From the NCBI GenBank assembly GCA_030648155.1, contig JAUSIK010000002.1:17205-81204 (forward strand): DNA of 64,000 nt. The letters run 5' to 3'. The translations under genes and the position numbers were made by a program. Shown one piece after another: positions 45,772 to 48,316 of the stretch (position 1 is the stretch's first letter; each line of letters starts with the position of its first letter). Source of the stretch: Nanobdellota archaeon (GTDB taxonomy: Archaea > Nanobdellota > Nanobdellia > Pacearchaeales > GW2011-AR1). The notes below the pieces were generated by a model. That model ran no database searches, had not been told where the DNA came from, and saw only the letters and a list, made by a program, of their open reading frames with translations.

Positions 45772-47106
45772 ATGAAAAAAAGAGGTTTGAGCAGCGTAGT
45801 CACAGTAATGCTTCTAATAGCTATTTCTATCGCAGCAGTAATAATACTTTGGTTTTATTTTAGGACAGGATTAGTAGATTTAAGTGAACAAATAAAAACA
45901 GAATGTGTAACATTACATTTAGAACCTGCACTCTGCATTTTAAACACAGATGAATCTCTATCAATTACATTAAAGAGAAATTTAGGTTCTGAAGAGATTT
46001 TATTTAGTAAAGCAAAATTACTATTTACTTTTACTGATGGCGATAGCAAAATAATAGAAGTTGATAATTTACCTCAAACATTAGATACAGCAATAAATTT
46101 ACTTCCAATATCAAAAGCAGAATTAAATAATAAACAAGTAAAGGGAATTAGAGCATCGGCAGTTATAGAATATGATGACAAAGTAGGTGTTTGCGAGCTA
46201 TCATCAAAAGAAATTACATGTTCAAGAGAAAGAGTTGTTGATGAAGGCTCGCCAACTCTTGGTGGAGGTTCTAATCCTTTGTGTGGAAACTCAATTACAG
46301 AATCAAGCGAACAATGCGACGATGGAAATGGAGTCGACACAGATTCCTGTGTTAATTGTATGAATGCAGTTTGCGGAGATAGTTTCATCCATCAAGGTAA
46401 TGAAATCTGCGACGATGGATCATCGAATGGAGTACCTGGGAAATGTAATCTTCAATGTAATGGTATGGTTCCTACAGCCCCCGATTGTTCAGATGGCACC
46501 TGGGCAACTCTCAACACATGGTATCAAGACTTATTCACAGGAGAAACAGTCTCGGAGTTCTGGGCCGATAAAGATCCAGCTTGGCAAACTCGTTGGACTG
46601 TTGAGAACAACGAATTGAAATTCAATAAGGACGATGAATTACCAATAGTAGATTTATCTGGTGATTTCTCATTAGAAATGGGCTGGCACATTTACACAGA
46701 ATCCTCATTTGGTTTCTTTGTTGAATATTTAGGTGATGATGGAAAAATATATAGAATTTATTATAAATGGTCTGGACCTACAGGTGGACCTCATAAATTA
46801 AGAGCATTTAGAGATATGGGCTCATATGATGAAGATGGGGTATTTAAAAGGGAAAATAGAGATGGTTATAAGGAAACACTTGGTTTCGAGCCCATTACAG
46901 AAATAGATGTAAAATTAGTGAGGGAAGAAAATTTATTCACATGGTATTATAAATTCCCTCCAAGTACAACTTGGATACAATATGCACAGACCACATTAAA
47001 TGATGCTAAACCTACCGTTAAATTCTTCTTCGACGAAGGATCAGGCCAGGCACTAAGATACGTCAAATTCCAATCAGACACATCAGGAACTTTCCCTTGT
47101 TCATAA
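45772..47106 (+). CDS. Pilin-like protein fused to DUF4215-type Cys repeats and a C-terminal globular domain (putative pilus adhesin)
   Basis: Class III signal peptide MKKRGLS-SVVTVMLLIAISIAAVIILW, then a ~150-aa pilin-like domain shared with the next gene. CGNSITESSEQCDDGNGVDTDSC...CGDSFIHQGNEICDDG lies at ~46283-46460. The ~230-aa C-terminal domain ends RYVKFQSDTSGTFPCS. Confidence 0.75.
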   Translation: MKKRGLSSVVTVMLLIAISIAAVIILWFYFRTGLVDLSEQIKTECVTLHLEPALCILNTDESLSITLKRNLGSEEILFSKAKLLFTFTDGDSKIIEVDNLPQTLDTAINLLPISKAELNNKQVKGIRASAVIEYDDKVGVCELSSKEITCSRERVVDEGSPTLGGGSNPLCGNSITESSEQCDDGNGVDTDSCVNCMNAVCGDSFIHQGNEICDDGSSNGVPGKCNLQCNGMVPTAPDCSDGTWATLNTWYQDLFTGETVSEFWADKDPAWQTRWTVENNELKFNKDDELPIVDLSGDFSLEMGWHIYTESSFGFFVEYLGDDGKIYRIYYKWSGPTGGPHKLRAFRDMGSYDEDGVFKRENRDGYKETLGFEPITEIDVKLVREENLFTWYYKFPPSTTWIQYAQTTLNDAKPTVKFFFDEGSGQALRYVKFQSDTSGTFPCS

Positions 47107-47107
47107 A

Positions 47108-48316
47108 ATGCAAAACAAAAAAGCTCTAAGCGCAGTTGTAAGTACAATTCTCCTAGTACTTTTAGGAATCTCTGCTGTTGCAATTTTTTGGTTTTACATT
47201 CAAGGATCACTAGTAAGTTTTAGCAGTCAGGTAAAAACAGAATGTGTAACCCTGCATTTAGAGCCTGGAACTTGCATTATTAACCCAGATGATTCACTTT
47301 CCATTATCCTTAATAGAAATCCTGGATCCGAAAAAGTAACATTAACGAAGGCTAAACTTTTACTCTCATTTAAAGACGGAACTTCGGAAATTAAGGAAAT
47401 AAATAACATTCCCTCCACTATTTCAGAAAATATTGTACTTGCTCCAATATCAAAAGTAGAATTAAACAATAAAGAGGTAAGATCAGTTCGAGCTTCAGCC
47501 GTAATTGAATACAAAGATAAAGTAGGTGTATGTGAATTATCTAAGAATGAAGTTTCATGTTCGAGAGAAAGAGTTGTTGATGAAGGGTCGCCAACTGTAA
47601 CCCCTCTATTATGCAAGGGAGACTCAAGTTGGACAACTTTGCCTACATGGCTTGAAGATGACTTTACAAGTCCTTTCATAAATAAATTCTGGAATGATGA
47701 TATAAAGAATAATTGGATATATTCTCCTGAAGCAACTGATAAAAAATCAGACACAATAACAGACGACAAAGGATATATTGATCTAAAATTAATTGGATAT
47801 TCCCAAGTAGCAAAAATCAAAGGCAATTTCATTATTGAGATTGGTTATACTATCAATGATTATAACTCTCTAGGAGGTTTCTATCTTACTCAAGATTTCA
47901 GTGAAAATCTATTCAGCTTCAAAGGATTTGGATTTTCGCTTGAGCCAGGACCTTCTATCGGTGGACATGATCAATATTATATAAAATCATTAAGAAGCAA
48001 TTTTCCGATATTTTTCCCTTCATTCCCTATTTCTGCAAATGCAGTTCCAAAAAGATTAGATTTAAGGCTAACTGTGAAGAAGAATATCCAAAATGGGAAC
48101 TATGAAGGAAATGATGTTATATGGGAATATAGGGGCCTATTCGATAATTCACATTACAATGATCCAACTATATGGAATACTATCGGACAACAGAATATAC
48201 CTATAGATAATTATCTTGATTTAAACAATGATGTAGATATAAGATTCAAGAGGGCCCCAGGAATGTTTATTAGATATGTAAGGTTCCAATCAGAAGAAGG
48301 TCTTCTTTGCAGTTAA
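47108..48316 (+). CDS. Pilin-like protein fused to a different C-terminal globular domain (putative pilus adhesin paralog)
   Basis: Starts 1 nt after the previous stop. MQNKKALS-AVVSTILLVLLGISAVAIFW. It shares VKTECVTLHLEP...RASAVIEY(D/K)DKVGVCELS...CSRERVVDEGSPT with the 45772 gene and then diverges. It ends IRYVRFQSEEGLLCS. Confidence 0.75.
   Translation: MQNKKALSAVVSTILLVLLGISAVAIFWFYIQGSLVSFSSQVKTECVTLHLEPGTCIINPDDSLSIILNRNPGSEKVTLTKAKLLLSFKDGTSEIKEINNIPSTISENIVLAPISKVELNNKEVRSVRASAVIEYKDKVGVCELSKNEVSCSRERVVDEGSPTVTPLLCKGDSSWTTLPTWLEDDFTSPFINKFWNDDIKNNWIYSPEATDKKSDTITDDKGYIDLKLIGYSQVAKIKGNFIIEIGYTINDYNSLGGFYLTQDFSENLFSFKGFGFSLEPGPSIGGHDQYYIKSLRSNFPIFFPSFPISANAVPKRLDLRLTVKKNIQNGNYEGNDVIWEYRGLFDNSHYNDPTIWNTIGQQNIPIDNYLDLNNDVDIRFKRAPGMFIRYVRFQSEEGLLCS

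Follow-up and report, generated by a model that had tools for sequence, protein, structure and literature searches.

The window analysed here, a stretch of 64,000 nucleotides (nt) from a Nanobdellota archaeon (Pacearchaeales, GW2011-AR1; GenBank assembly GCA_030648155.1, contig JAUSIK010000002.1, positions 17,205 to 81,204 of the forward strand), carries two neighbouring genes, gene 1 and gene 2, which probably encode modular archaeal type-IV-pilin-like adhesins and which would be ancient tandem paralogs with patchy, short-tract gene conversion between them. As proposed, each protein would comprise a class III signal and transmembrane helix with a pilin head (~150 amino acids (aa), with a conserved final Cys), a flexible linker of ~12 aa, optional DUF4215 repeats and a concanavalin-A-like (ConA-like) sandwich of ~210-270 aa. 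With a pilin module, a short linker and an extra non-pilin domain, both are modular pilins in the sense of Raynaud et al. (2021). The source genome spans 1.25 Mb in 24 contigs and is 88.8% complete. The features discussed below are listed in Table 1.

An earlier note on this DNA had depicted one pilin stalk carrying swapped, unrelated-looking C-terminal domains, and had added that homology of those domains along their full length would turn the genes into ordinary paralogs. Such a homology was found. The C-terminal domains (C-domains) of the two proteins match each other by BLASTP over 238 aa (E=1.9e-7), a third type of domain, found in protein P0003, bridges both of them (BLASTP E=1.6e-20 and 1.2e-17), and the comparison by hhalign of four type-A with two type-B domains gave a probability of 98.9% (E=1.7e-17) over 213 columns, end to end. 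Invariant columns run throughout the whole domain, among them those of an initial Cys and of the C-terminal Cys, which are probably joined by a disulfide, and the terminus RYV(K/R)FQS...C, whose similarity had already been pointed out, is common to both proteins. To judge from these alignments, the C-domains are old diverged copies of one domain and not swapped unrelated domains, and the genes are therefore diverged paralogs.

Structural models agree with this relationship. The AlphaFold2 (AF2) models, with a mean predicted local distance difference test score (pLDDT) of 74 for gene 2 and 70 for gene 1, predict a concanavalin-A-like lectin/glucanase fold for both C-domains, with values mostly of ~78-92 in gene 1 and mostly of ~70-92, dipping to ~52-60, in gene 2. 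For both models the top Foldseek matches were ConA-like sandwiches with a probability of about 1.0: the gene 1 domain matched C-terminal sandwiches of glycoside hydrolase (GH) family 43, L-type lectins, carbohydrate-binding module CBM66 and alginate lyase (E 3e-7 to 1e-4), and that of gene 2 matched GH16 glucanases, galectins, the GH43 sandwich and the lectin domain of galactocerebrosidase (E 1e-5 to 1e-3). The check for a lectin or laminin-G-like (LamG-like) fold suggested earlier thus came out positive. At the level of sequence, no Pfam family was detected at E<=5 for the C-domain in seven of seven members, no sequence matches in PDB or NCBIfam were obtained, and the profiles of Laminin_G_3, GH16, legume lectin and similar families do not include it. 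A profile search of 1.84 billion proteins returned just nine family representatives at E<=1e-10, and among the 201 genomes of the order that were scanned, full-length members were restricted to the same genus; the C-domain is an unannotated, genus-restricted family. A non-pilin protein of 683 aa (P0037) apparently contains two copies of the same domain (W..D.F ... SYFRMQAETGF), so that the C-domain exists outside pilin fusions too. The motif SWY.D.FTG opens the domain in all members except the distant P0034 and P0035 (alignment columns 60-100), where it is found inside an insertion of ~35 aa in the pilin module and the C-domain begins after it; it may represent a displaced or donated first strand.

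In a sister genome with a tandem pair, genes 1 and 2 are each represented by a separate ortholog. Orthologs of gene 1 are P0002, P0029 and a protein of genome G141, and the ortholog of gene 2, P0028 (44% identity, 99% coverage), occupies the same position beside thrS. The presence of the same tandem A plus B pair beside thrS in GCA_053534655.1 indicates that the duplication is old, as does a C-domain tree that splits by type (A 99/98, B 100/99, C 82/85) and in which by-genome pairs are rejected at p=6e-6, 2.5e-5 and 1.5e-3.

The shared N-terminal module of ~150 aa was correctly recognised in the earlier note: the two copies form an ungapped alignment of 161 residues with 62% aa identity, and their nt identity is 64% over 492 nt and 65% over 483 nt. 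Their N-termini, MKKRG/LSSVVTVMLLIAISIAAVIILWFYF in gene 1 and MQNKKA/LSAVVSTILLVLLGISAVAIFWFYI in gene 2 (KRG/LSSV and KKA/LSAV, the slash marking the putative cleavage point, then ~22 hydrophobic residues), were assigned to class III, as before, through a match by eye to the pattern alone, which we take to be of the FlaFind type and which fits both. Both AF2 models show the long N-terminal alpha-helix followed by a beta-sheet head that is characteristic of pilin-like proteins (helices 8-47 and strands 50-140 in gene 1, with a module pLDDT of about 70-87; helix 4-48 and strands 51-141 in gene 2). The PDB profile matches of the module, weak as they are (E 0.035-1.1), are exclusively to archaeal filament subunits. 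Two stand-alone pilins encoded in the window are homologous to the whole module and end one residue past the Cys that opens the peptide (C)SRERVVDEGSPT, located directly after the module and with pLDDT <50 (from residue 156 in gene 1, aa 155-167 in gene 2); because the stand-alone pilins end at this aligned Cys, the seam can be identified as the linker that follows the pilin module. The N-module is present in 146 of the 201 genomes of the order, both as pilins of ~150 aa and as the head of many long proteins. In the 15 long proteins examined, a DUF4215-like CGNGxxExGExCD spacer was frequent, and the C-terminal parts comprised Laminin_G_3, right-handed beta-helix and PhoPQ-related hydrolase-like domains together with many unannotated Cys-rich regions.

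The near identity of the DNA at the seam, described in the earlier note, was confirmed: 39 of 41 nt are the same, in what is the best 41-nt window within the module alignment, against a module background of 64-65%, with an exact run of 23 nt (46225-46247). Outside the seam, identical residues use the same codon in 45% of cases, which equals the expectation from codon usage and implies that synonymous sites are saturated there. Inside it, 11 of 13 codons are the same versus 5.7 expected (a-priori P 0.002-0.008), and after correction for scanning the whole gene pair P rises to 0.02 when windows of 13 codons are considered and to 0.065 when the longest run is. The codon excess of the window seam is thus real but modest, and codon constraint alone, advanced earlier as a possible explanation, is favoured by the corrected values and disfavoured by the count of shared codons. 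Linker sequences differ in the orthologs of other genomes, which makes it unlikely that the nucleotides themselves are under functional constraint, for example as part of an RNA element.

In contrast with the C-domain tree, the tree of the N-module plus linker groups sequences by genome (window 89/86, GCA_964465795.1 80/88, GCA_053534655.1 74/84), with by-type clades disfavoured at p=0.03-0.05. For the quartet formed by genes 1 and 2 with P0029 and P0028, informative sites in the N part were 12 by-genome versus three by-type, five of the 12 lying in the linker, and in the C part three by-genome versus 16 by-type. Identity between gene 1 and its ortholog P0002 is 59% in each of the two halves, whereas between the paralogs gene 1 and gene 2 it is 62% versus 22%, and linker residues are genome-specific in three of three two-copy genomes. 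Conversion tracts are seen in the sister genome GCA_964465795.1, whose paralogs, on different contigs, share exact runs of 53 nt (LSSQIKTECVTLRLEPE) and 23+44 nt in a background of 62% (scan P 0.0002-0.001), the second tract, in which 67 of 69 nt are identical, starting at DEGS in the linker and continuing across the seam to take in the first Cys repeat. The by-genome grouping of N-module and linker and these exact tracts make gene conversion at the seam plausible, and the 39 of 41 identity in the window was most likely caused by a short conversion. In the same window, the two stand-alone pilins share a perfect tract of 120 nt (34555-34674 and 35052-35171) that covers the signal peptide and the helix, with abrupt divergence at either end, and which is clearly a recent gene-conversion or duplication patch between pilin paralogs. 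Altogether, the data are read here as patchy short-tract conversion recurrently including the linker, and not as wholesale concerted evolution of the module. Conversion homogenises the paralogs, and nothing here shows an exchange of different binding domains.

The space just after the seam is, on comparison of relatives, an insertion slot where modules come and go. The DUF4215-type Cys repeats noted before in gene 1 score above the curated cut-offs of both PF13948 (aa 168-196, 30.7 bits versus 27, E=4e-7) and TIGR02232 (aa 170-193, 25 bits versus 20.8), the second repeat of the insert having been recognised by eye, and no DUF4215 or TIGR02232 repeat was found in gene 2. Gene 2, P0028 and P0029 lack the insert and P0002 contains a single repeat, so that the same flanks hold nothing, one repeat, two to three repeats, or a Cys-rich linker plus Laminin_G_3. 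The last case corresponds to the 678-aa type A protein of genome G141 (L019 94-2130, minus strand), where pilin module and C-domain are set apart by a Cys-rich linker followed by Laminin_G_3 (E=3.7e-24, aa 270-434), so that a single pilin stalk bears two successive ConA-like modules. In this regard, the survey of related genomes for other C-terminal cassettes at the seam that the earlier note called for did find variable inserts.

Several points weigh against the explanation proposed. The AF2 models are built on 11 sequences and are of moderate quality, and the Foldseek template modelling (TM) scores normalised by target are modest, up to about 0.5. No curated pilin model in Pfam or NCBIfam reached its cut-off for the gene pair (TIGR02537: E=0.04, 13.4 bits versus 20; DUF7289: E=0.59). 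The codon excess at the window seam is marginal once corrected for scanning, and the saturation of synonymous sites around it rules out a recent conversion of the whole module. The trees are thin, with eight family members in all, and the clades to be tested were chosen with the trees already in view. When the 12 aa of the linker are removed, the window pair alone still groups by genome (87/83) and approximately unbiased (AU) tests no longer reject by-type topologies (p=0.11 and 0.23), which limits the by-genome claim mainly to the linker and patches. Finally, the genome-specific residues of the linker could reflect selection, imposed by a shared partner or a processing site, instead of conversion.

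A rival explanation is that of plain tandem paralogs that never recombined, with the pilin module and linker under stronger purifying selection and the seam being a conserved peptide written in AT-biased codons, helped by chance. Such an explanation agrees with the same-codon rate outside the seam, with the corrected seam probabilities, with the trees lacking the linker and with the peptide QIKTECV, which is codon-identical even across genomes. It is nevertheless unlikely, since it does not account for the even identity of the halves in orthologs versus the uneven identity in paralogs, for linker residues that follow the genome in every two-copy case, or for the exact runs of the sister genome, which are beyond codon bias (P<=0.001). 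A further point against it is that both seams share the Ser codon TCG, presumably an unexpected choice in an AT-rich genome. At the opposite extreme, the seam might be the dedicated joint of a cassette system exchanging binding domains onto one expressed stalk, either through variation like that of pilE/pilS or through frequent shuffling of modules; the earlier note had thought of a cassette-like architecture whose seam could be a recombination joint. The identity tract does stop exactly where homology ends, inserts at the seam vary among relatives, N and C trees are incongruent, and the same N-module carries many other modules across the order, in which a pilin stalk with a grafted module is a genuine and frequent design. 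However, no silent cassettes were found: seam DNA (<=3 mismatches) and C-domain each have just two copies in the 88.8%-complete genome, both of them in full genes with start codons and signal peptides. In addition, the C-domains are homologous and each persists as a stable ortholog in a sister genome, the open reading frames (ORFs) of the window and the repeat finder revealed neither recombinase genes nor repeats beside the gene pair, and linkers of other modular pilins in the order differ from the seam of the gene pair. A dedicated cassette joint is therefore very improbable, and from the earlier idea of a recombination joint there remain a linker where inserts come and go and where conversion is plausible. 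An intermediate and broader possibility, that the linker is a preferred recombination point for the whole class of DPANN modular pilins, whose identity patches let binding modules be inserted, lost and exchanged, seems quite doubtful.

An alternative of a different kind bears on function alone and does not conflict with the evolutionary reading. The proteins might not be filament subunits, the class III-type N-terminus serving merely to anchor or target a lectin at the cell surface, as in Sulfolobus bindosome proteins. The weak NCBIfam similarity of the gene pair to bindosome BasC and UpsA (E 0.03-0.07) points in this direction, as does the locus, where no filament assembly genes (ATPase, platform) adjoin the gene pair. 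On the other hand, stand-alone pilins of ~150 aa are homologous to the entire N-module, which models as a helix plus beta head, and the genome encodes an A24 prepilin peptidase (PF01478, 51.8 bits, contig 9) and T2SSE ATPases (three PF00437 matches above cut-off), all of them away from the gene pair. A role restricted to surface anchoring is thus possible, if somewhat unlikely.

The favoured explanation, that of modular pilin-like adhesins with short-tract conversion, can be outlined as follows. Genes 1 and 2, separated by a single base (the TAA of gene 1 ends at 47106 and the ATG of gene 2 starts at 47108), would be co-transcribed from a TATA-like element (45736-45755). The A24 prepilin peptidase would cleave the products after Gly5 (gene 1) or Ala6 (gene 2), and the cleaved proteins would be exposed along a type-IV-like filament or at its tip, or else be anchored at the cell surface. 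The diverged sandwiches of types A, B and C may bind different ligands, probably glycans, on the host or substrate of a DPANN-type symbiont. While divergence of the C-domains follows their type, short patches of the pilin module, above all the linker, would recurrently be made alike among the paralogs of one genome through short-tract conversion, perhaps seeded in the most conserved, codon-biased stretches, and such a process would lead to the near-identical DNA of the seam. The linker would also be the site where extra modules are inserted or lost.

Table 1. Coordinates and characteristics of the gene pair, its parts, its surroundings in the window, and its counterparts in related genomes
Feature	Positions	Strand	Description
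Gene 1	45772-47106	+	ORF; 444-aa modular pilin-like protein with 'type A' C-domain
Gene 2	47108-48316	+	ORF; 402-aa modular pilin-like protein with 'type B' C-domain
Gene 1 pilin module, aa 1-150	45772-46221	+	Class III-type signal/transmembrane helix, long alpha-helix, beta-sheet head, ending at Cys150
Gene 1 seam/linker CSRERVVDEGSPT	46217-46257	+	39/41 nt identical to 47556-47596
Gene 2 seam/linker	47556-47596	+	39/41 nt identical to 46217-46257
154-nt tract	46104-46257	+	79% identical to 47443-47596; ends exactly at the seam (repeat finder); candidate gene-conversion region
Gene-1-only insert	46258-46482	+	Gly-rich spacer and two DUF4215/TIGR02232 Cys-rich acidic repeats
Gene 1 C-domain, aa 238-444 (207 aa)	46483-47103	+	Predicted concanavalin-A-like beta-sandwich (AF2, Foldseek); invariant first and last Cys as brackets
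Gene 2 C-domain, aa 169-402 (234 aa)	47612-48313	+	Predicted concanavalin-A-like beta-sandwich; homolog of gene 1 C-domain (hhalign)
AT-rich TATA-like palindrome ACTATATTTATAAATCTAGT	45736-45755	+	Near-perfect; ends ~17 nt upstream of gene 1 ATG
thrS	48569-50308	-	Convergent with gene 2; syntenic anchor of the pilin locus in relatives
Two stand-alone pilins of ~140-160 aa	34544-34975, 35041-35529	+	Same module type (alignment with N-module)
GCA_053534655.1			Tandem pair adjoining thrS, P0029 (type A) then P0028 (type B), both without Cys repeats
GCA_964465795.1			P0002 (type A, one Cys repeat) adjoining thrS; P0004 (type C) between PMT_2 and short pilins/GluRS
ENA contig			Lone type C gene P0003 adjoining thrS

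The surroundings of the gene pair provide some additional observations. The palindrome upstream of gene 1 lies within a divergent intergenic region of 98 nt and is a possible archaeal promoter for gene 1; it could also be the TATA element of both gene 1 and a gene of 244 aa on the opposite strand. Surface proteins are abundant around the gene pair. Just upstream, three large secreted proteins are encoded in a row (38479-44893), one of them Tat/lipobox-like, one of 1088 aa with weak similarity to M64 peptidases and one of 525 aa bearing a dockerin (PF00404 E=2e-6). The syntenic thrS orthologs of relatives contain the archaeal editing domain PF08915. In GCA_964465795.1, a protein of 912 aa is encoded upstream of the type-A pilin (L009 3195-5930); it lacks a Pfam match, and its C-terminal half is of low complexity and extremely rich in Gly, Ser and Tyr.

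The general design of these proteins has a known bacterial counterpart. Modular type IV pilins of Streptococcus sanguinis include PilB, with a vWA module, and PilC, with a concanavalin-A-like lectin module (Raynaud et al. 2021, PMC8179133), and the modular architecture is widespread and very diverse in bacteria (PMC8179133). Like the gene pair, PilC joins a pilin module to a module of the ConA-like lectin/glucanase superfamily. In contrast with the bacterial modular pilins and their IPR012902-type N-terminal motifs, to which the archaeal pair has no match, the C-domains described here lack Pfam or PDB sequence matches and belong to a tiny family, DUF4215 Cys repeats are used as an optional spacer, and the paralogs show concerted evolution at the linker. 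With archaeal proteins carrying class III signal peptides, such as type IV pilins, archaellins and the Sulfolobus bindosome (PMC3047682, PMC4371748, PMC13705601), the gene pair shares the [KR][GA]/hydrophobic N-terminus and a prepilin-peptidase gene in the genome, and it resembles the adhesin-like partners of archaeal type IV filaments (T4F); unlike these proteins, it falls below the TIGR02537 and Pfam pilin cut-offs and its locus is devoid of ATPase and platform genes. T4F systems are reported to be sparse in DPANN (PMC13705601).

As for the ConA-like superfamily (GH16, the GH43 C-terminal beta-sandwich, L-type lectins, galectins and LamG), both C-domains share with it the predicted jelly-roll beta-sandwich but not a sequence-profile match, and they are bracketed by terminal Cys residues; no catalytic motif of the GH16 type was seen in them, none having been searched for. 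Gene conversion between prokaryotic paralogs has been described (PMC6053082, PMC4632066, PMC5485169), and the likeness consists in paralogs of one genome that are closer than orthologs in part of the gene, with exact tracts in a diverged background. Here, unlike in the known cases, the effect concentrates in short patches (about 20-70 nt) around a domain linker and, in contrast with Neisseria pilE/pilS, silent donor cassettes are absent and the paralogs become more uniform instead of more diverse. Current views are not overturned, since both modular pilins and paralog gene conversion are well known. Within the known design of a modular pilin with a lectin-type head, the new elements are a C-domain family that is unannotated and restricted to one genus, and a signal of homogenisation centred on the linker.

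DPANN archaea live attached to other cells and, to our knowledge, how they recognise their hosts is largely unknown. The gene pair, with two diverged lectin-like heads (three when relatives are considered) on a common pilin stalk, provides concrete candidate attachment proteins, whose C-domain family, being confined to essentially one genus, points to a lineage-specific, fast-evolving binding module. The homogenisation centred on the linker would be a small but clean example of conversion keeping the assembly-facing part uniform while the ligand-facing part diverges. If the linker did prove to be a recombination point for the whole class, it would let episymbionts diversify their host-attachment adhesins, with Cys repeats, LamG and beta-sandwiches of the new types A, B and C as candidate modules for exchange, on a stalk that still fits one assembly machine.

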